A program made the translations under genes and the position numbers. Below are positions 17,428-26,160 of a DNA stretch of 28,728 bases, piece after piece. Origin of the DNA: Clostridia bacterium (GTDB taxonomy: Bacteria; Bacillota; Clostridia; TANB77; RGIG9151); contig JAEEXS010000008.1 in NCBI GenBank assembly GCA_016287855.1, positions 1-28,728 of the forward strand, read 5' to 3'. How positions within the stretch are numbered: the stretch's first letter is position 1; every line of letters starts with the position of its first letter. The notes beneath the pieces are model-generated. The model searched no databases and was not told the DNA's origin. It was given only the letters and a program-made list of their open reading frames with translations.

Positions 17428-17826
17428 ATGCGCAAATTTTTTTCAATTATATTTAGCTTAATTCTACTATTTAATATATTTACTACTGACGTTTATGCCT
17501 TCTCTCTTCCGTTTAATGGTGATAATTTCATCAAAGCTGGTAGTCGTACTGAAGAAGCAAAAAATGAAACAAAAGCACTCATAGACTCTGTAGATGAAGG
17601 ACTTGGTAAAGGACTTGAAGCTATACTTGTCATTCTCTACCAAATCGGAGATATAATAGCGATTTGTATATTTATCTTTTTTGGTATAAGATATGTAGTT
17701 GCTACACCTCAGAAAAAAGCCGATTTAAAGGCTTCTATGTATCCATATTTCATTGGGTTATTGTTGTATATAGTGGGAGTGCCAATCGCTATAACAATAA
17801 TAAATATATTCATAAATGTTTTTTAA
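17428..17826 (+). CDS. TrbC/VirB2-like small membrane protein (pilin-like), paralog 1
   Basis: 132 aa, RBS GAGGAG. Signal peptide MRKFFSIIFSLILLFNIFTTDVYA, a variable ~40-aa segment, hydrophobic helix, basic loop ATPQKKADLKASM, then a second hydrophobic helix. Confidence 0.6.
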   Translation: MRKFFSIIFSLILLFNIFTTDVYAFSLPFNGDNFIKAGSRTEEAKNETKALIDSVDEGLGKGLEAILVILYQIGDIIAICIFIFFGIRYVVATPQKKADLKASMYPYFIGLLLYIVGVPIAITIINIFINVF

Positions 17827-17843: not shown

Positions 17844-18248
17844 ATGAAAAAATTTTTTAAGGTTTTAAGTTTAGTTTTAGTATTTATGTTGGCAATCGCA
17901 CCTCTAGCAGTTTCTTTTGCTGCAGACCCATCACCAATGGCTAAACCTAGTATTACTGCTGATGACTCTTTTATTAATAATACTGGTGTAGGCAATTGGT
18001 TCGGTGCTGCTGCAGGGGCTCTTAAATTTATTGGATATGGTGTTGCCGTAGTAATGATTTTATGGCTAGGTATCCAATATATGCTTGCTCAACCTGCTAA
18101 AAAAGCTGAATTAAAAGGAAAAATGTGGTCAATGCTTATTGGTATTATTCTTTTAGTTGCTGGTGTTACTATAATTGATATTCTTTGGAATGCAGCTAGC
18201 GGTCTTGATGGCCAAGTAGAAACCTATTCAGATACTCAAAATCCATAA
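17844..18248 (+). CDS. TrbC/VirB2-like small membrane protein (pilin-like), paralog 2
   Basis: 134 aa, RBS AAGGAGG. Signal peptide ...LAVSFA, then FIGYGVAVVMILWLGIQYMLAQPAKKAELKGKMWSMLIGIILLVAG. Same architecture and loop motif as paralogs 1 and 3. Confidence 0.6.
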   Translation: MKKFFKVLSLVLVFMLAIAPLAVSFAADPSPMAKPSITADDSFINNTGVGNWFGAAAGALKFIGYGVAVVMILWLGIQYMLAQPAKKAELKGKMWSMLIGIILLVAGVTIIDILWNAASGLDGQVETYSDTQNP

Positions 18249-18277: not shown

Positions 18278-18652
18278 ATGAATAAAGACGTTTTAAAAAT
18301 AATATCCATCTTTTTTATATTAATAATTGTGCTATTTAATTTTTCTTATGCTATCGATTACCATGAGATTTCTCAAGAAATTGAAGGTTATTTTGTAAAC
18401 GGAACAAATAATGATTCCAGTGTTAATCCTGAAACTTTAAGAGATAATATCTTAGGTATTTTTAAATACATAGGTTACTTTCTAGCAGTTTGCGTAATAT
18501 TAGTTACTGGCATCCAGTTTTTAACCGCAAATGCTCAAAAGAAAGCACAACTAAAAGAAAAATTATGGTACATAGCTATTGGCGTAATTATTTTAGCAGG
18601 CGGTATTCCTATGTATGAAGCAATAAGAGATGCTTTAATGAAGCTTAGATAG
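18278..18652 (+). CDS. TrbC/VirB2-like small membrane protein (pilin-like), paralog 3
   Basis: 124 aa, RBS TAGGAG. Signal peptide ...FNFSYA, then YIGYFLAVCVILVTGIQFLTANAQKKAQLKEKLWYIAIGVIILAGG. Confidence 0.6.
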   Translation: MNKDVLKIISIFFILIIVLFNFSYAIDYHEISQEIEGYFVNGTNNDSSVNPETLRDNILGIFKYIGYFLAVCVILVTGIQFLTANAQKKAQLKEKLWYIAIGVIILAGGIPMYEAIRDALMKLR

Positions 18653-18694: not shown

Positions 18695-18717
18695 ATAATT
18701 ACTTGGAGGTGGTTATA

Positions 18718-19071
18718 TTGAACACATATATGATTCCACGTGAAGCTACCAATGAAAACAGGTTTTTAATTTTTACACCCCAAGCAGCAATATTTTCTTT
18801 AATAGGTTTTGGTATTGGACTATGTTTTGTATTTATTTTTAACTTTATAGCTGATATGGCTCAAAATTCAATTGCTACTTATATCGGCTGGGGAATATGC
18901 GTATTAATCGTATTAATAGGGTATGCTCTTGGCACATTTAACATACCTGACACAACAGCATTTGATATATGTAGGAAAACAGGTGGAGAACCTGCTTATG
19001 TTATTATAAAACGTGCAGTCACGTTCAACAAAAGAAAAAAGATTTATATCTATGAAAGGGGAAAGTTCTAA
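18718..19071 (+). CDS. PrgI/VirB3-like small two-TM protein
   Basis: About 117 aa. GGAGGTGG at 18705-18712 favours the TTG at 18718; ATG 18730 and TTG 18703 are alternatives. Two TM helices and a basic C-terminal tail (VIIKRAVTFNKRKKIYIYERGKF). It sits just upstream of the VirB4-type ATPase, separated from it only by the 349-aa bitopic gene, as PrgI/VirB3 analogues do. Confidence 0.5.
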   Translation: MNTYMIPREATNENRFLIFTPQAAIFSLIGFGIGLCFVFIFNFIADMAQNSIATYIGWGICVLIVLIGYALGTFNIPDTTAFDICRKTGGEPAYVIIKRAVTFNKRKKIYIYERGKF

Positions 19072-20120
19072 TGGATGGTTTCTCAAAAGGGTCACTTATT
19101 TTATTGTTGGCCGTTATATTCTTTATAATTGTTGCCTTAGTCGTAATTCTCTTAATCATGAAGAAAAATGAAGAAGAGGCTAATCGACCTGGTGCAAATA
19201 GAGTAAAACAAACCCCGCTTGGTATGAGCTATGATGATATAAGAAACTTTCTTCCTTTCGATGATATAAAAGACAATATGATAGTACAAGAAAAAGGCGA
19301 AAAATATACTATGCTTGTAGAATGTCATGGTATAAACTATTATCTTATGTCAGATGTTGAAAAAATAGCCGTAGAAGAAGGGTTTATTCAATTTTTAAAC
19401 TCCCTTCGCTTCCCTATCCAAATTTACGTTCAATCTAGGACTGTAAATTTAGATGAAAGTATACGAGCTTATAGTGAAAAGTATAATAAGATTCAAGATG
19501 AATTTAATAAAATGCTTGAAAAATTCCAAGAATTAAATAGAAAAGGTGCATCTACTGATGATATCTTAGCTCTTGGATATGAACTTGAAAAGAAAGAAAA
19601 AGTATTAAATTATACAAAAGATTTAATAGATAACGTTTCATATATGACTCAAAACACTAACGTACTTGAGAAAAAATACTATATAGCAGTTTCCTACCAT
19701 ACTACCGAAGCTGGTATCGTTAATACAATGAGTGAAGCTGATTTATATAGAATGGCTTATGCAGAATTAAGTAACCGTGCTGAAAGTATTTGTGCAGGAC
19801 TAGTATCTTGTGGTGTTGAAGCCAATATATTAGATACCTACCAACTTACAGACGTGATGTATATCGCTGTTAATCGCGATGATGCAGATATCTTTAATAT
19901 TAATAAGATTGTAGATTCTCAGATTAATTCTATATCTATAACATCTAAATCAACTAAAGAAAAACGTGATGAACTTTATAGAGCTGAAAAAAGAGCTCGT
20001 GAAATCAAAGAAGAACAAGAACGTATGCTTCAAGCTGAAGCTGAAAGGCGCGAATATTTAGCACAACAAAGTTTTTCATCATCTAATAATGATGAAGTTA
20101 GTGAGTCCACACTTTTATAA
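19071..20120 (+). CDS. Bitopic membrane protein of the T4SS-like operon (function unassigned)
   Basis: 349 aa. The ATG overlaps the upstream stop (TAATG); RBS AAAGGGG. One N-terminal TM (SLILLLAVIFFIIVALVVILLIM). The segment FLPFDDIKDNMIVQEKGEKYTMLVECHGINYYLMSDVEKIAVEEGFIQFLNSLRFPIQIYVQ reminds me of the N-terminal domain of Gram-positive VirB4 proteins. The tail is charged and coiled-coil-like (KEKRDELYRAEKRAREIKEEQERMLQAEAERREY). Confidence 0.55.
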   Translation: MDGFSKGSLILLLAVIFFIIVALVVILLIMKKNEEEANRPGANRVKQTPLGMSYDDIRNFLPFDDIKDNMIVQEKGEKYTMLVECHGINYYLMSDVEKIAVEEGFIQFLNSLRFPIQIYVQSRTVNLDESIRAYSEKYNKIQDEFNKMLEKFQELNRKGASTDDILALGYELEKKEKVLNYTKDLIDNVSYMTQNTNVLEKKYYIAVSYHTTEAGIVNTMSEADLYRMAYAELSNRAESICAGLVSCGVEANILDTYQLTDVMYIAVNRDDADIFNINKIVDSQINSISITSKSTKEKRDELYRAEKRAREIKEEQERMLQAEAERREYLAQQSFSSSNNDEVSESTLL

Positions 20121-20148: not shown

Positions 20149-22182
20149 ATGAAAACTGATTATTTAAATAGAGTAGACCGTGGAGGTTATAACCACGCTC
20201 AACAGGATACCACAATCACTTCAGTTGATGACGGAGAAAATATACTTGAAAAAAATGTCACATCAATAAAAGATATAATTCTACAATCTGGAATTGATGC
20301 GACTTCATATAACCATTTACAGTTTTTTGCGAAAGCAACTAGATATTGTAGAAGCTTTTATGTAGCTTCTGTTCCACGTATGGCTACATTCGTAGAATTC
20401 TTAAGCTCTATGTATGATTTCGGAGATATAAATGTTTCCGTACATATAGAGCCTATTCCCGAAGCTATGTCTCAAAACGACTTAAACAAAATGATTTCAG
20501 ATATAGAATCAGAAATCATAGTTGCTCAGAAAAAAGGAGATACAAACCGTGCATCAGTTTTACAAGACAAGTTTTCTGAAGCAGATCAATTAAGAAGTGA
20601 AATTGCTGCCGGTTTTAATAAGTTATACGATGTATCTATATTTTGTACAATATCTTCTTATGACCTAAATGAACTTGATAGATTGTCCGAGTTACTTGCA
20701 ATGGAAGTTTCAAAAAATCTTTTAGTACTAAAAACTGCTTGGGCAATTCAAGAAGATTGCTTTAAATCCAATTTACCACTCAATCTTGATTTGGTAAAGA
20801 AAAAACATACCTTTGATAAAAGATCAGTTGCAACAGTATTTCCATTTACTACTGCTGAAATTGGTCATTCAACAGGTGTACCACTAGGTATTAACGCTCA
20901 AACCGGAGTTCCCGTATTATTCGACAACTTCCACCCTTCCCTAACCAACTATAATATGGTTGTGTTTGGTAAGTCTGGTGCCGGTAAAGGTGTTACTATA
21001 AAAGTATTAACTGCTCGTTCCTCTGTTCTTATGGGAATTGAAACCTTAGCTCTTGACGCCGAAGGTGAATATGGAGTTGTTGCTCAATCCTTAGACGGAG
21101 TTAACGTAGTTATAAGCCCAACATCAAATACAATAATAAATCTATTCGATGTTGAAGCTGAAAAAACAAGAGATGAAATCACTGGTCGTGAAAGAAATAC
21201 TGTAAATATAGAAAATAAAGTTGAAGACGTAACTCAATCTTTAGTTACAATGGCACGTGGTTCTACTAAGAGTACAGAAGTCAACGAACTTACAAAGCAG
21301 ATTATCGCTGAGGCAGTTGCTGAAGAATACCGAGCTATCGGAATTACAAGTGATCCTGAATCTTTATACGATATGAATTCTGCTTCCGTTTGGGAAAATG
21401 GTGTTCTTGTAAAACCTAAAAAACAAATGCCAACTGTTGGTTCTTGGTATGAAAGAATTTGTCAAAAAGCTGAAGAAAATACAAATCCAGATTACCAATT
21501 CCACTTTAGCTACCTTGTAAAGGTTATGAAACAATACGTAAGAAAATACAATGGACAAATGAGTTACTTTGATGGACAATCTACCTTTAATCTGTTAGAT
21601 AATGTTCCATTCATAAACTTAGACATATCTCAACTAGAGGAACGTTTTGCAAGACCTCTTGCTCAACAAATACTTCTATCTTGGATATGGGAAAAATACG
21701 TTAAGAAAAATAGTGAAGATAAGACTGTTGCTAGAAAAAAACGTGTTATAATTGATGAGGCTTGGATGATGCTTGCATATCCAGAAGCCGTAGACTTCTT
21801 AAATACAATGGCACGTCGTGCAAGAAAAAGAAACGTTTCTCTAGCTGTTGTTTCTCAAAAGTTCCAAGATTTCTATGAAACTAAAGAAGCTCAAGCAGTT
21901 TTAACATCTTCAGATACTAAACTTTTCTTAGCGCAAGATAAATCTGAAATTGAATACTTAAAAGAAGTATTTAAACTTAGCTCAGGAGAGGCTTCCTTCC
22001 TAACTACTTGTACAAGAGGAAGCGGATTATTAAAAGTCGGACCTGCTACTGCTATTTTAGAGATACATCCTACAGAATTAGAATTTGACTTTGTAGAAAC
22101 AAATATGTCTAAGATTGTAGAACGCGAGAACGCAAAAAATGAAAATGATGAAAATGATGAAAATAACGAAGAAGATATTTAA
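20149..22182 (+). CDS. VirB4-type conjugation/secretion ATPase (Gram-positive CD1110/TcpF/PrgJ-like)
   Basis: 677 aa, RBS AAAGGAG. Walker A FGKSGAGKGV (nt 20968-20991) and Walker B KRVIIDEAWMML. SLAVVSQKFQDF is also present. The N-terminal non-ATPase domain is typical of VirB4. The acidic tail ENDENDENNEEDI is encoded by a 9-nt tandem repeat. Confidence 0.8.
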   Translation: MKTDYLNRVDRGGYNHAQQDTTITSVDDGENILEKNVTSIKDIILQSGIDATSYNHLQFFAKATRYCRSFYVASVPRMATFVEFLSSMYDFGDINVSVHIEPIPEAMSQNDLNKMISDIESEIIVAQKKGDTNRASVLQDKFSEADQLRSEIAAGFNKLYDVSIFCTISSYDLNELDRLSELLAMEVSKNLLVLKTAWAIQEDCFKSNLPLNLDLVKKKHTFDKRSVATVFPFTTAEIGHSTGVPLGINAQTGVPVLFDNFHPSLTNYNMVVFGKSGAGKGVTIKVLTARSSVLMGIETLALDAEGEYGVVAQSLDGVNVVISPTSNTIINLFDVEAEKTRDEITGRERNTVNIENKVEDVTQSLVTMARGSTKSTEVNELTKQIIAEAVAEEYRAIGITSDPESLYDMNSASVWENGVLVKPKKQMPTVGSWYERICQKAEENTNPDYQFHFSYLVKVMKQYVRKYNGQMSYFDGQSTFNLLDNVPFINLDISQLEERFARPLAQQILLSWIWEKYVKKNSEDKTVARKKRVIIDEAWMMLAYPEAVDFLNTMARRARKRNVSLAVVSQKFQDFYETKEAQAVLTSSDTKLFLAQDKSEIEYLKEVFKLSSGEASFLTTCTRGSGLLKVGPATAILEIHPTELEFDFVETNMSKIVERENAKNENDENDENNEEDI

Positions 22183-22201
22183 TTAGAAAGTGGGTGTCAG
22201 T

Positions 22202-25200
22202 ATGAAAAAATTTTTTAGTCTATTTTTAGTAATGATTTTAATATTAAATTTTGTATCTTTTTCATACGCAGATACTGTTAATACTATAGATAGACTTATT
22301 GATGTTAATCCAGATGCTGTAATTTCTGTTCCTGAGCCTTCTACTCCCCCTGAAACTGATGATGAAGATCCAGATTTCGGAAGTGAAGGTGCTAAACCAA
22401 GGTGGGGAATATTCGAGCCTATAATAAGTCTTATAGAAGATATTTTAGCTTTTTTACCTTCTATGGTATTAAGGATAATATATTTAATTCCTACTTTAGA
22501 TGGAATAATTTTTAATACAAATAGACTATTTAGTATTACTCTTTTTGATACAGTTGTGCCAGCAGATACAAGTGATGCAGCCGATGCAGCCGGTACAGCT
22601 AGTACGGGTGATGCAGCCGGTACAGCAACTGAAACAATTAAAAGTGGGTCTGTTTCAGCATATCTTCAATCTTCTATCTCAGCAGTTTACAATGCTTTTA
22701 GATATTTAGTTACTGCTGTATATATAGTAGTTTTAGTTTATTTAGCAATTAGAATGATGTTATCTTCTGTAGGTCGTCAAAAAGCAAAATATAAAGAATT
22801 ATTTAAATATTGGCTTATAGGACTATTACTCCTCTTCTCCTTCCACTGGGTAATGGCTGGTGTTATTTGGCTATCTAATACAATAGTAGAGATTTTATAT
22901 AAGACAACTATTTCTATGATGTCTTCCACTACTGTTTGGGAAGAGGTTTCTAAAGTATCTCATTTTTCTGCTACTCATTATAATCAATCACCTATTACAG
23001 ATTATATATTTTATGAAATTACTCATTTCTTAGGAACAGTTGCTGAAATAGGATTGGTAGCTTCCGTTTTTGGATGGGCTTTGGTATTTGCTGTACCAAT
23101 TCTTGCTCTTGTATTTGCAATTATGCTTATAAGATCCGCTTTTAGTATTATTATTACTTACTTTAAACGTTTGTTTACCATATTAGTTTTAGTATTACTA
23201 TTCCCTATCGTAGTACTTTCTTATGTGTTTGATAAAATAGGAGATAGGAAAGCTCAAACCCTTTCGATATGGATTAAAGAGTTTGTAACTAACGTAATGA
23301 TACAACCTATTCACGCCCTAATACTTACATTCATTGGTATTATGTTTGCGAAAGCTTCTTCTTCCCTATTACTTAATAATGCATTTTTTGGCCCTATTTT
23401 CTGTTTACTAGCTCTAAGATTAATACCTATGGGCGAAGAATTATTAAAGAAATTATTCCAGATATCTTCTCAAATGGGACCTGGTTCTCATGGTATCGCC
23501 GGTTCTGTTGCTCAAGCTGGCTTAGCTCTTCGTGGTATGAGAGAAATGGGAGGAGCTTTAAAGAGTAATTTTTCGAATATTAAAGATTTAAGGAATTTAC
23601 GAAAACAGCATGGAATAGAATCTAGCTTCAAGACTGCTACAAAAGGAGCTGCTTTATTCAGTAAAGGTGAAGATGGTAAACTACATCTTAATTCAAAAGA
23701 CCAACGAGGTCTAAATGGAGCTCGTGCTGCTCTTAGTTCTCGAAATAACGAAGAATATAAAAGAGCTTATGAGGATTATAAAAAAGCTGTTAAGAAAAAG
23801 ACTAATTCTAAAAATATGGTAGGAGCTCTTGCTAAAACATATGCTCCAGCTGCCGGTGTTGCTTATGGTATAGGTGGTGCTATAACAAGTGCTGGGTCAG
23901 GTCAATTCTTATCCAAGGCCGCTACAAATGCTGCTATTGCAGGATCAGCAGCAGGAGCAATTGCTAAGGCTCCTGGCGCTGTAGATAAGTTTATTCATGG
24001 TGATGATGAATCAGCTAAACAATATGAAAAATTACTTAAGAAGATTAAGAATACAGATTTAGACTCTATGGATTCAACTGAAAAGAAACGTATATCGACT
24101 CTAACTGGCATCCCTGAATCTGCTTTAACTGAGGCTAATAGAGCACGACTAGAACTAGATATCAATGCTATGGCTACTGCTGCTAGATTTGGTGCACCTT
24201 CAGATAAAGTTAAAGACTTTACGTCTTATTCTCGTCAGAAGAAATTAATTGAAGACGGGCTTATGCCTGACGGAAGCGGTGCTACATTTGATAAATCTCT
24301 ATTTACAAATGTTCAACGTACCAAAGATGGATATACTGGTGAATATAATGGTCAAAGATATTATATTGGTGGCAAAGGCAGTGAAGATGACCTTGTTGAC
24401 TTTAACAATCCTACTAAATGGGCTGATGCTAAGAAAGCTTATGATGCTGCTTCAACCAAGGTAAATACTGCTGAAATCGAGTTAAGTGATCTTAATACTA
24501 CACATTCTGAATTAGTAAAAGCACGCGATAAAGCTAAATCTCGTGGTAATACTGAAGAAGCAACTAGATTGCAACACGAAATTAATATTAATAGTGATAA
24601 AATCTCATCTAAAAAGACTGAAATTCGTGAAGCAAAACTAATAAGAGATGATACTGAAAAAACATTGAATTCACTAATAGATGCAGATATTGATTACCAT
24701 ACTAAATTTATGGGAGAGGCTGCTCCTGAGCATGCTGAATCTGCAGTTAAGTTAATAAGAAAAGATCCTAGCAAAGGTTCTTACACAATATCTGGCGTAG
24801 ATTCTGATGGTAATATAGATTATAGTGTAGATCCTCGTACGTTTACTATTACATATCAAGGTCAAACATTTACAACAGAAACTCCTCGCAATATGTTGAA
24901 TACTTCTCAACAGCTAGTAGCCGACTATTATGCTGCTAATGAAGCACTCGCTACTGCTGATACCACCCTAACTGCAGCACAAAATAACTTACAACTAGCT
25001 GTTGCCCAAAATCTCAGCGATCCTGGTAGTGTTTCTGCCGCTGATGTTGCCGTAGCTCAAACAGCTTACGATCAAGCTCAAGCAGCTTATGATCAAGCAC
25101 GGTTAGATCGTAGAAATGCAGGCGAAAGAATAATAAAGAGAAATCCAAATAACGGAAATATTAGTATAGATGGACGCAGTATGATAGTTACATATAAGGA

Positions 25201-26125
25201 TGAATCATATACTATGCAAACTCCTGATTACATGCTAGATTCTACTCAAAGAGTAGTAGCCGAGTATGACGATGCTACAACCGCTTTACGTGAAGCCGAA
25301 ACTGATTATAATGTAGCATCTGCAGCTAATGATACAGTTGCTATGAATAATGCTAATTTAAGACGTATTGAGGCTAGTGAACAACAAAGACTTGCTGCTT
25401 ATAAAATGGTTGTACAAAATCCTTCTAAAGGAAGTTACATTCAATCTGGAAACAATTATACTGTAACTGTAAATGCAAATGCTGAAAAAGGACAACAAGA
25501 AGAAACATTTAGTATTCCAGTAGTAAATCCTGCTTCAGTAGAGCAAGCTCAACATGTTATATATCAATCTGTAATGACTGAAGCTAAACAAGAAAAATAT
25601 GTTGAGTTAAGAGACAATTATATTAGTGCTATAGAGAGTGAAGATGCTAAAGCAATAAATACTGCAGATAGAGCGTTAAATAAATTCATTAATGAAACTT
25701 CTAAAGATGTGTCTGATACATTTAACGCATATACTGCAAACCCTTCTTCTGCTCCAGCTAATACTACTGATTTCGGACCATCTCTTGATTTACGAGGTCT
25801 CTTTACTAGTATAGCTGCTAATCCTAATACTCCTACGCCTGCCTTTACTGCCTCTATGATAGATTCTACGTTAGATGAAGACTTATTTGCTTCTGGTGCT
25901 TGTACTGAATTATCAGATTTCTTAAAAGACACGAGCCAAAAACTTATAATTTTGCAAAAAAATGTTGCTAATATTGTAATTAGTATTAAAGAATTTGGTG
26001 TTCTTAAACCTGTAAAAGAAATTTACGATGTTAGTACCTTAACTATGGAAGCAATATTTGGCGATTCAGATGATCCTGTAACAATATTCTTTAAAGATGG
26101 TAGATGGTATATAAAAGAAAAATAA
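22202..26125 (+). CDS. Giant VirB6/TrbL-like polytopic membrane protein with a long repeat-bearing C-terminal domain
   Basis: 1307 aa from the ATG at 22202; the ORF-track GTG at 22190 is less likely. Signal-peptide-like MKKFFSLFLVMILILNFVSFSYA. At least 6 TM helices lie between ~22650 and 23440, for example FKRLFTILVLVLLFPIVVLSYVF. After that come a Gly/Ala-rich segment (~23830-23990), a coiled-coil-like stretch (~24440-24700) and three divergent repeats. It follows VirB4 directly, as VirB6 analogues (TcpH/ConG/Orf15) do. Confidence 0.6.
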   Translation: MKKFFSLFLVMILILNFVSFSYADTVNTIDRLIDVNPDAVISVPEPSTPPETDDEDPDFGSEGAKPRWGIFEPIISLIEDILAFLPSMVLRIIYLIPTLDGIIFNTNRLFSITLFDTVVPADTSDAADAAGTASTGDAAGTATETIKSGSVSAYLQSSISAVYNAFRYLVTAVYIVVLVYLAIRMMLSSVGRQKAKYKELFKYWLIGLLLLFSFHWVMAGVIWLSNTIVEILYKTTISMMSSTTVWEEVSKVSHFSATHYNQSPITDYIFYEITHFLGTVAEIGLVASVFGWALVFAVPILALVFAIMLIRSAFSIIITYFKRLFTILVLVLLFPIVVLSYVFDKIGDRKAQTLSIWIKEFVTNVMIQPIHALILTFIGIMFAKASSSLLLNNAFFGPIFCLLALRLIPMGEELLKKLFQISSQMGPGSHGIAGSVAQAGLALRGMREMGGALKSNFSNIKDLRNLRKQHGIESSFKTATKGAALFSKGEDGKLHLNSKDQRGLNGARAALSSRNNEEYKRAYEDYKKAVKKKTNSKNMVGALAKTYAPAAGVAYGIGGAITSAGSGQFLSKAATNAAIAGSAAGAIAKAPGAVDKFIHGDDESAKQYEKLLKKIKNTDLDSMDSTEKKRISTLTGIPESALTEANRARLELDINAMATAARFGAPSDKVKDFTSYSRQKKLIEDGLMPDGSGATFDKSLFTNVQRTKDGYTGEYNGQRYYIGGKGSEDDLVDFNNPTKWADAKKAYDAASTKVNTAEIELSDLNTTHSELVKARDKAKSRGNTEEATRLQHEININSDKISSKKTEIREAKLIRDDTEKTLNSLIDADIDYHTKFMGEAAPEHAESAVKLIRKDPSKGSYTISGVDSDGNIDYSVDPRTFTITYQGQTFTTETPRNMLNTSQQLVADYYAANEALATADTTLTAAQNNLQLAVAQNLSDPGSVSAADVAVAQTAYDQAQAAYDQARLDRRNAGERIIKRNPNNGNISIDGRSMIVTYKDESYTMQTPDYMLDSTQRVVAEYDDATTALREAETDYNVASAANDTVAMNNANLRRIEASEQQRLAAYKMVVQNPSKGSYIQSGNNYTVTVNANAEKGQQEETFSIPVVNPASVEQAQHVIYQSVMTEAKQEKYVELRDNYISAIESEDAKAINTADRALNKFINETSKDVSDTFNAYTANPSSAPANTTDFGPSLDLRGLFTSIAANPNTPTPAFTASMIDSTLDEDLFASGACTELSDFLKDTSQKLIILQKNVANIVISIKEFGVLKPVKEIYDVSTLTMEAIFGDSDDPVTIFFKDGRWYIKEK
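24755..25620 (+). repeat. Three divergent protein-level repeats (~70-80 aa) in the C-terminal domain of the VirB6-like protein
   Basis: R1, 24755-24985: IRKDPSKGSYTISG...FTITYQGQTFTTETPRNMLNTSQQLVADYYAANEALATADT. R2, 25133-25335: IKRNPNNGNISIDG...MIVTYKDESYTMQTPDYMLDSTQRVVAEYDDATTALREAET. R3, 25409-25620: VQNPSKGSYIQSG...YTVTVNANAEKG...; R3 is more diverged. Confidence 0.7.
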
Positions 26126-26160
26126 CAACACTTATTCCAGTAACCAAGAAGGTGATTTAT

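Follow-up and report, generated by a model that had tools for sequence, protein, structure and literature searches.

The open reading frame (ORF) at 22202-26125 in the 28,728-nucleotide stretch of Clostridia DNA analysed here (the window; contig JAEEXS010000008.1 of assembly GCA_016287855.1) encodes a protein that is supported as a VirB6-type platform subunit of a chromosomal machine resembling a type IV secretion system (T4SS). Behind its membrane domain lies a long hydrophilic tail, which comparison between strains showed to be a hypervariable cassette swapped by recombination. With about even confidence, we take the best overall explanation to be a VirB6-type platform of a domesticated T4SS, whose tail is most likely a cytoplasmic arm and not a surface adhesin. 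The swappable tail and the unusual chromosomal, pilin-bearing T4SS are the main interest of the locus, and the pairing of a constant machine core with an exchanged tail offers a natural experiment on what the tails of extended VirB6 proteins do.

The exchanged interval was delimited by comparison with another strain, L011:
24005-26146, + strand: tail cassette; L011, a strain near-identical elsewhere, has nothing similar to it at the nucleotide level.

A blastn comparison of the window with L011 gave 91.8% identity over 21302-24005, none over 24005-26146 and 76.6% from 26146 onwards, with similarity returning directly past the stop codon. At the protein level, the closest relative (P0002, encoded at L011) was about 100% identical in the VirB4 C-terminus (99.7% by blastp) and 98% identical in the membrane domain of the VirB6-like protein, and sliding identity dropped from about residue 441. 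P0002 and a further relative, P0003, were 77% identical over their N-terminal halves and 96% identical in their tails. This mosaic pattern of identity shows recombinational exchange of the tail between strains. Across the loci, identity to the proteins of the window was 82-100% for the VirB4 ATPase, 83-90% for CsaB (the housekeeping comparison), 60-84% for the VirB3-like protein, 25-54% for the pilins, 24-67% for the M23 protein encoded downstream, and at most 29% or undetectable for the tail. A palindrome with a 14-bp stem (GAAAAGAGAAAGAGC AAGC TCTTTCTCTTTTT) was also seen at 26195-26226, shortly after the start of the downstream gene and about 50 nt beyond the point (26146) at which similarity to L011 returns; a regulatory hairpin is one possibility, a tie to the recombination boundary another.

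The features of the ORF up to the end of its membrane domain are as follows:
22202-26125, + strand: ORF of the extended VirB6-like subunit (1307 aa, no internal stops; 30 homologues of 746-1307 aa).
22202-22270, + strand: signal peptide, aa 1-23 (MKKFF...FSYA, then D), read from the sequence; motif conserved in the family.
22271-22651, + strand: extracellular N-terminal region of the mature protein, aa 24-150 (acidic stretch, helix 69-103, insert 119-148).
22379-23536, + strand: VirB6-like helical membrane domain, aa 60-445 (AlphaFold2 (AF2), Foldseek, profile, sub-threshold NCBIfam conjugal membrane families).
22676-22867, + strand: VirB2-pilin-like hairpin, aa 159-222 (α1/α2 with cytoplasmic loop RQKAKYK; Pfam and Smith-Waterman).
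23222-23260, + strand: most conserved motif, YVFDKIGDRKAQT, aa 341-353 (invariant in the family alignment).

We used AF2 with the family alignment to predict the structure of aa 60-445 (predicted local distance difference test (pLDDT) 74.8; predicted template modelling score (pTM) 0.69). When this model was searched with Foldseek against 350,542 PDB chains, the five best matches were all TrwI/VirB6 chains of plasmid R388 (probability 0.96-1.0, target TM-score 0.40-0.52). Their E-values were only 0.07-0.15, so the support from the fold is moderate. The hydropathy scan and the AF2 model together gave seven long helices, the hydrophobic ones being α1, α2 and α5-α7. TrwI has been described as seven long helices, five of them hydrophobic (α1, α2, α5-α7) (PMC9259494), and the predicted helices match this description one-to-one. 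Conservation peaks at YVFDKIGDRKAQT and continues beyond it in W357, E360, F361, N364, Q368 and P369, which are invariant in the family and largely so in an alignment of the wider superfamily. This superfamily was gathered with a profile of the membrane domain, which found 4177 cluster representatives at E≤1e-3, of these 2117 at E≤1e-30; the superfamily figures on length and tails given below come from the best 163 of the 4177.

The hairpin α1/α2 provides a second line of evidence. It scored 24.7 bits against Pfam T4SS_pilin (PF18895; cut-off 26.6), a family matched in 23 of the 30 family members, and aligned with the three adjacent pilins at Smith-Waterman z values of 4.2, 9.8 and 5.2. The hairpin and the VirB2-like pilins encoded next to it are, by these alignments, homologous. 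Homology of the N-terminal region to the cognate pilin has been described for CedA/CedA1 and VirB6/VirB2 (Beltran et al., PMC9905601). Curated families of conjugal membrane proteins were also touched, all under their cut-offs: 17 of 23 family members matched MMCAP2_0566, six of 23 Mbov_0396 and four of 23 pLS20_p028. In the test of the Mycoplasma integrative and conjugative element (ICE) families MMCAP2_0566 / Mbov_0396, the scores were 22 bits against a cut-off of 90 and 16.6 bits against a cut-off of 70. A precomputed match to PF19590 was found in four relatives, listed for one of them (P0006) as TrbL_3 (weak). The VirB6-like identity proposed in an earlier note on this DNA is therefore supported by operon position, by the fold of the five best matches, by the pilin-like hairpin and by the sub-threshold conjugation families.

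Beyond about aa 410 there are no more hydrophobic segments. The earlier note had counted about 880 residues after the channel domain, close to the roughly 900 found here; the 860-900 aa that follow the last hydrophobic helix hold no further transmembrane segment, and the hydrophilic tail measures about 860 aa. Because of this large C-proximal hydrophilic domain we use the label 'extended VirB6' in the sense of Alvarez-Martinez and Christie, whose definition a recent review repeats (PMC12857230). As an aside on the membrane domain, seven relatives (P0005, P0008, P0010, P0011, P0013, P0014 and P0021) showed a weak internal similarity between the hairpin (about aa 125-170) and residues 273-317, with scores of 44-57; lying about 150 residues apart, the two segments hint that part of the membrane domain was duplicated internally in those relatives. 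For the window protein, comparison of aa 271-350 with the adjacent pilins revealed no similarity (z ≤ 0).

We then considered on which side of the membrane the tail lies. After the signal peptide, the head has a net charge of −9.6 per 100 aa, with a negative value in 99% of superfamily members; for the central loop the figure is −4.2. Past the helical bundle, the first 100 aa average +4.8, and 76% of members are positive there; within the family of the window protein, aa 411-538 carry +11.7. A tally of Lys and Arg in the loops gave a positive-inside bias of +4.8 or +6.6 for models with the C-terminus inside and of −0.4 or +1.4 for models with it outside. This charge bias, with acidic outside segments, a basic flank after the bundle and no later transmembrane segment, favours a cytoplasmic tail. 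Reporter-fusion data on Agrobacterium tumefaciens VirB6 reportedly agree with this placement. We give a cytoplasmic tail an even chance or slightly better, and an extracellular one a substantial probability that stays short of even.

Several observations weigh against a VirB6-type platform with a cytoplasmic arm. In R388, whose TrwI is the only VirB6 with a solved structure, only α1-α2 of this protein are in the membrane, with α3-α7 on the periplasmic side (PMC9259494), and the rest of VirB6 forms the base of the periplasmic stalk that carries VirB5 (PMC9259494; PMC12857230); in an R388-like assembled state, the tail would start outside the cell. The supposed third and fourth transmembrane helices (TM3 and TM4) were predicted by AF2 as one continuous helix, aa 292-346, and so cannot be two membrane passes. 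Of the six candidate helices, TM3 and TM6 reached transmembrane-like hydrophobicity in only 40-49% of the superfamily, which makes helix counting unreliable. The tail evolves at least as fast as exposed parts, and neither VirB5 nor a separate adhesin gene was found in the examined loci. The AF2 model of the tail is itself of low confidence (pLDDT 62, pTM 0.35). As to identity, none of the 30 family members matched Pfam TrbL/VirB6 at E≤0.01, and hhalign gave a probability of 0.1% against TrwI and 1.6% against TcpH of plasmid pCW3.

The topological points raise a rival arrangement, in which the pilin-like hairpin alone crosses the membrane, as in R388, the rest of the protein sits in the zone of the wall and the tail is extracellular, forming a built-in stalk, tip or adhesin that replaces VirB5 and the enterococcal surface adhesins, while the cassettes diversify target or partner specificity. 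The best fold matches are the very TrwI chains that have only α1-α2 in the membrane and on which VirB5 is mounted (PMC9259494), and the long helix across the supposed TM3-TM4, the recombinational replacement of a hypervariable tail and the operon's lack of a VirB5 or adhesin gene all fit this arrangement. The α-hairpins of the tail model also resemble periplasm-spanning hairpins in local matches (Foldseek probability 0.99 for AcrA and 0.97 for KpsE; 20.5 bits for Pfam OEP), although such α-hairpin matches are generic. The distal composition appeared slightly extracellular-like, a weak sign from a classifier that was later discarded: trained on proteins of the window to separate cytoplasmic from extracellular composition, it returned intermediate scores and misplaced the N-terminal region of the downstream M23 protein.

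An outside tail is harder to reconcile with the strongly basic 130 juxtamembrane residues, since the segments that are certainly outside are strongly acidic. By positive-inside reasoning, the very hydrophobic helices (Kyte-Doolittle (KD) hydropathy up to 2.8) would stop transfer with the basic flank inside. No adhesin-like, Ig-like, wall-binding or LPXTG element was found in the tail, and the domain at its tip is the conserved part. Hypervariability, moreover, is no guide to exposure at this locus. The downstream protein begins with about 400 aa of low complexity, rich in Asp, Asn, Lys and Glu, followed by a single transmembrane segment at aa 409-427. With no signal peptide, this single segment and a C-terminal M23 domain, its N-terminal 400 aa must be cytoplasmic. 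In the same two strains, its aa 51-295 are 24-54% identical and its aa 540-838 are 76-94% identical. The presumably cytoplasmic part thus varies more than the extracellular part, and we dropped the rule that a hypervariable region must be exposed. We regard the built-in extracellular stalk, tip or adhesin as a serious reading that nonetheless falls clearly below an even chance.

The points on identity raise another explanation, namely that the ORF is no VirB6 homologue at all and that a pilin paralogue has been fused to an unrelated polytopic membrane protein, its T4SS context being coincidental. Besides the missing Pfam match and the low hhalign values, the weak Foldseek E-values fit this account, as does the result of tblastn with aa 1-483, which found no match in 72,556 plasmids (PLSDB). 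Against it, all five best chains among the PDB set were VirB6, and the order of pilins, VirB3-like protein, VirB4, this ORF and M23 protein is kept in all loci examined; a relative's locus that bears a coupling protein has the same parts. The sub-threshold matches to three conjugation membrane families are consistent, four relatives carry the PF19590 match, and a pilin-like N-terminus is a known trait of VirB6 and CedA (PMC9905601). Such a fusion is very improbable.

The tail itself has the architecture of a rod, in which a basic and Gly/Ala-rich linker is followed by a coiled coil, by β-hairpin/α-hairpin modules and by a small conserved α/β end domain:
23432-24001, + strand: basic juxtamembrane segment (aa 411-538) and Gly/Ala-rich segment (aa 539-600), semi-conserved; net charge +5.7, +6.0 (family means).
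24413-24739, + strand: coiled-coil-type helical spacer, aa 738-846, rich in Lys, Glu, Ala and Thr; 1 Pro, 2 Gly.
24728-25126, + strand: module copy R1, aa 843-975 (helix, β-hairpin, α-hairpin; motif, Smith-Waterman, hidden Markov model (HMM), AF2).
25127-25390, + strand: module copy R2, aa 976-1063 (motif, Smith-Waterman, HMM).
25391-25741, + strand: module copy R3, aa 1064-1180 (degenerate; by its position the ancestral copy of the family; HMM 1.5e-8).
25877-26116, + strand: family-specific C-terminal α/β domain, aa 1226-1305 (F..G.C..L ... G.WY; AF2 pLDDT 74-79).

With a maximum KD19 of about 1.0, the aa 411-600 region is not transmembrane-like, and its Gly/Ala-rich segment holds 19 Ala and 10 Gly in 58 residues. 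The Ala/Gly-rich linker described earlier is thus present, and there are two such stretches, aa 119-148 and aa 539-596. The coiled coil of the earlier note is likewise seen as long helices, which measure 34-64 residues in the AF2 tail model; the spacer at aa 738-846 has the low Pro and Gly content given above. A sequence profile search of the PDB returned coiled-coil proteins only (SMC3, p85 iSH2) and was uninformative. Foldseek searches of the tail model against the PDB and BFVD gave generic helical matches such as ABC exporters and tape-measure proteins, and high probability was reached by the local α-hairpin matches alone.

Each module consists of a helix, '(F/Y)(T/A)ETA..V..(N/D)PSKG', and two to three short strands ending '..Y(T/S)M..TP', with an α-helical hairpin after them in most cases. 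For R1, the AF2 model has two strands (880-885, 888-893) and two helices (895-939, 946-979), with pLDDT 70-87. Self-BLASTP gave no off-diagonal matches and was replaced by Smith-Waterman alignment with shuffles and by HMMs. R1 and R2 aligned at z = 13.6, a score reached in none of 1000 shuffles, and z was 4.7 for R1 against R3 and 2.2 for R2 against R3. A two-copy HMM failed on the module of the relatives, whereas a seed with several members detected it. We therefore relied on an HMM seeded solely with the single-copy modules of eight other family members. On the window protein, it gave three separate matches, at 845-865 (2.5e-5), 978-1011 (3.2e-8) and 1066-1093 (1.5e-8), from which we conclude that the three copies are real. 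The earlier note had reported three modules sharing a strict core motif; the number three stands by the HMM, whereas the strict motif occurs only twice (aa 883-909 and 996-1022), R3 being degenerate and lacking the 'TP..ML..Q..VA.Y' half.

Chance similarity among low-complexity helices, or an assembly artefact, could be suspected from the weak R2-R3 alignment and the two strict motif matches, but was rejected as negligible on the R1-R2 score, on the HMM built from other proteins that matches all three copies, and on the divergence of the DNA. The nucleotide identity between R1 and R2 is 57% and there is no long direct DNA repeat, so the duplication is old. The search for the module in other proteins that the earlier note had proposed found it as a single copy in at least nine relatives and in triplicate in the window protein only. 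The module is thus a feature of the family, and its triplication, for which the alignment and HMM statistics provide the support that the earlier note had sought, is private to the window protein. MAFFT aligned the single module of the relatives to R3, which identifies R1 and R2 as the added copies. Within the helical part of R1, we also noted a 21-nt tandem duplication at 25054-25095, in perfect register and 90% identical, which encodes AQTAYDQ-AQAAYDQ.

The distal end is the most conserved part of the tail. An HMM placed the end domain of about 80 aa solely at the extreme C-terminus, in 17 family members, and found it in no representative of the wider superfamily to hand. Word-indexed homology searches with the tail, as a sequence or as an alignment, returned zero matches and missed the parent protein and its family too, so uniqueness is not implied.

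The earlier note had suggested that the repeats form a built-in adhesin or target-recognition domain. We found no positive evidence for this: Pfam, Foldseek and a sequence scan revealed no Pfam domain, LPXTG motif, wall-binding module, or adhesin-like or Ig-like fold in the tail. Among 34 long superfamily members, no Pfam domain other than T4SS_pilin was found in heads or tails. In the low-confidence tail model the modules are β-hairpins followed by α-helical hairpins. A constant tip on a variable rod runs counter to the pattern expected of a tip that binds receptors. The earlier note had also set its proposal against homology of the tail to the C-terminal domains of TcpH/ConG; no similarity to TcpH was detectable, hhalign staying at the 1.6% given above. 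The adhesin idea is accordingly unproven and not refuted.

Stop-free translation bore out the 1307-aa ORF at 22202-26125. The likely start codon is the ATG at 22202 and not the GTG at 22190, because the homologues begin MKK or MKR. The N-terminus reads MKKFFSLFLVMILILNFVSFSYA up to the presumed signal peptide boundary, with D after it; the '..FSYAD' ending is conserved across the family, and a signal-peptide-like N-terminus is present in 131 of the 163 superfamily members. The signal peptide of pilin paralogue 3 ends '..NFSYA', as the earlier note had observed in likening the two signal peptides. In the mature N-terminal region, aa 24-68 have a family mean net charge of −8.2. They are followed by a conserved hydrophobic helix at aa 69-103 (..PTLDGIIFN; AF2 helix 69-92, pLDDT about 80) and by an insert at aa 119-148 rich in Ala, Thr, Asp and Gly, which is common to the closest relatives only (occupancy 0.36 in the family alignment). 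The hydropathy scan placed the start of the first robust hydrophobic helix at about aa 166, leaving about 140 mature residues upstream, close to the 130 or so counted before.

Whether the protein is oversized, as had been claimed, depends on the comparison. TcpH of pCW3 has 832 aa, and against it the protein is large; within its own uncharacterised superfamily its length is ordinary, since the best 163 representatives have a median of 1040 aa and a maximum of 1972 aa, and 17% exceed 1307 aa. The median tail in this set is 534 aa. In its own 30-member family, the window protein is the longest.

The neighbouring genes of the machine are the following:
17428-17826, 17844-18248 and 18278-18652, + strand: VirB2-like pilin paralogues 1 to 3 (Pfam T4SS_pilin/TrbC for 2 and 3; NCBIfam Mbov_0395 below cut-off for 1 and 3).
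18703-19071, + strand: small two-helix membrane protein in the VirB3 position.
19071-20120, + strand: VirB4 N-terminal domain as a separate gene (349 aa, membrane-anchored; orthologues match Pfam TraC-like).
20149-22182, + strand: VirB4 ATPase (677 aa).
26161-28728, + strand: downstream gene, which leaves the window (orthologue of about 995 aa with a C-terminal M23 peptidase domain).

The genes form a tight run on one strand, in the order three VirB2-like pilins, VirB3-like protein, VirB4 N-terminal domain, VirB4, VirB6-like ORF, M23 hydrolase and three small proteins, and the best promoter-like site lies upstream of the first pilin gene. Divergent from one another, the three pilin paralogues all have a signal peptide and a Q-K-K-A loop that is conserved. 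The left 17 kb of the window is housekeeping DNA (ClpC, Rpe, HtrA, RarA, YitT, TagA, CsaB, DUF5693). Three orthologous loci (L001, L002 and L009) share a conserved gene order, including the split of VirB4 into two genes, and the left flank RarA-YitT-TagA-CsaB-DUF5693; on the right they are flanked by YmdB and SpoVS, and in two also by Amidase_3 and MecA. Their VirB6-like proteins are 30-40% identical to the window protein, and VirB4 is 82-91% identical across these loci, matching the conservation of CsaB. Within ±10 kb, neither the window nor these three loci contained a relaxase, a type IV coupling protein (T4CP) or an integrase. Relatives were found in five of 185,579 GTDB species representatives, all of them metagenome-assembled genomes of uncultured Clostridia or Eubacteriales, and both GTDB relatives with a named source came from gut samples. 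The locus looks like a domesticated T4SS that is inherited vertically and that, in Firmicutes, carries VirB2-like pilins. Conjugative versions probably exist as well, because a distant superfamily member (P0100, at L014) is clustered with an M23 protein, two TrbC/T4SS_pilin genes and a T4CP (T4SS-DNA_transf/TraG-D_C). On the minus strand, ORFs of 82-146 aa at 26157-28238, antisense to the downstream gene, have low-complexity translations and are almost certainly spurious.

These observations suggest how the protein may work. A Sec signal peptide places the acidic N-terminus outside, and the pilin-like hairpin α1/α2 anchors the protein. By analogy with R388, a pentamer probably forms the base at which VirB4 extracts pilins from the membrane and stacks them. 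A cytoplasmic tail would then be an arm of variable length that holds the conserved end domain off the membrane and presents it to a conserved partner. As this system has no coupling protein, the partner docked there could be a component of the machine (VirB4) or a substrate. The two extra modules of the window protein would add two α-hairpins and lengthen the arm. If the tail is external instead, the arm would be a stalk or tip that replaces VirB5. A more specific version, which we think unlikely, is that an external pentameric tail supplies a Gram-positive, pilus-building T4SS with a stalk that crosses the wall and with a tip, replacing VirB5 and the outer core complex, with module number setting its reach and the cassettes defining strain-specific partner recognition or exclusion. 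Were the external stalk correct, Firmicutes would have in this locus their first counterpart of the domesticated, pilin-bearing T4SSs that are so far known only from Patescibacteria and archaea.

The locus bears on two points of current knowledge. The role of the extra domains in extended VirB6 proteins 'is not yet known', according to a 2025 review, which also describes VirB2-type pilins as absent from Gram-positive T4SSs with Patescibacteria as the sole exception (PMC12857230). Chromosomal, relaxase-less, pilin-bearing T4SSs have been ascribed among monoderms only to Patescibacteria, and otherwise to the archaeal Ced/Ted systems (PMC12857230, PMC12102498, PMC9905601). This gut Clostridia locus, a chromosomally fixed pilin-bearing T4SS with no relaxase or coupling protein nearby, suggests that pilin-bearing monoderm T4SSs are not confined to Patescibacteria.

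Among known systems, extended VirB6 proteins such as TraG of the F plasmid and the Rickettsiales VirB6 paralogues share with the window protein at least five hydrophobic helices, a large C-proximal hydrophilic domain and a position beside VirB4. In TraG of F and SXT, a variable hydrophilic segment sets strain or plasmid specificity in entry exclusion. The window protein differs from these in that its tail has no detectable sequence similarity to theirs and consists of β-hairpin/α-hairpin modules and a private end domain, in its monoderm, Clostridium-type host, and in the absence of a relaxase or coupling protein within ±10 kb. TrwI/VirB6 of R388 (PDB 7o3v, 8rt9, 8rtd) is the best fold match, with seven long helices, a matching hydrophobic pattern and a VirB2 pilin in the operon, but has 342 aa, no tail, no cleavable signal peptide noted and no sequence-profile similarity; R388 also has VirB5, VirB7-11 and VirD4, all absent from the locus here.

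TcpH (pCW3), ConG (ICEBs1), Orf15 (Tn916) and PrgH (pCF10) are likewise polytopic membrane proteins of monoderm T4SSs, and members of the MPF_FA class have 700-900 aa with extra C-terminal regions (PMC12857230). TcpH/ConG-type systems differ in having no VirB2-like pilins and in carrying a T4CP and a relaxase. The adhesin or Ig-like domains and the LPXTG or other wall anchor by which PrgB-like enterococcal surface adhesins or other Gram-positive adhesins would be recognised were not found here. The MMCAP2_0566, Mbov_0396 and pLS20 p028 families (NF045848, NF045889, NF045890) are the only curated families touched by the membrane domain; their members have about 300-380 aa, are without a tail and lie on conjugative elements. 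CedA/TedA of the archaeal Ced/Ted DNA import systems share the pilin-homologous N-terminal region, the chromosomal location and a VirB4 without a relaxase (PMC9905601), yet are archaeal, much smaller and without a long tail. The chromosomal T4SSs of Patescibacteria differ from the present one, which belongs to Clostridia bearing sporulation genes (SpoVS and YmdB in the flanks) and has no T4CP nearby and a split VirB4; they resemble it in their monoderm host, in their arrays of divergent VirB2-like pilins beside VirB3, VirB4 and VirB6, and in usually lacking a relaxase (PMC12102498; PMC12857230).

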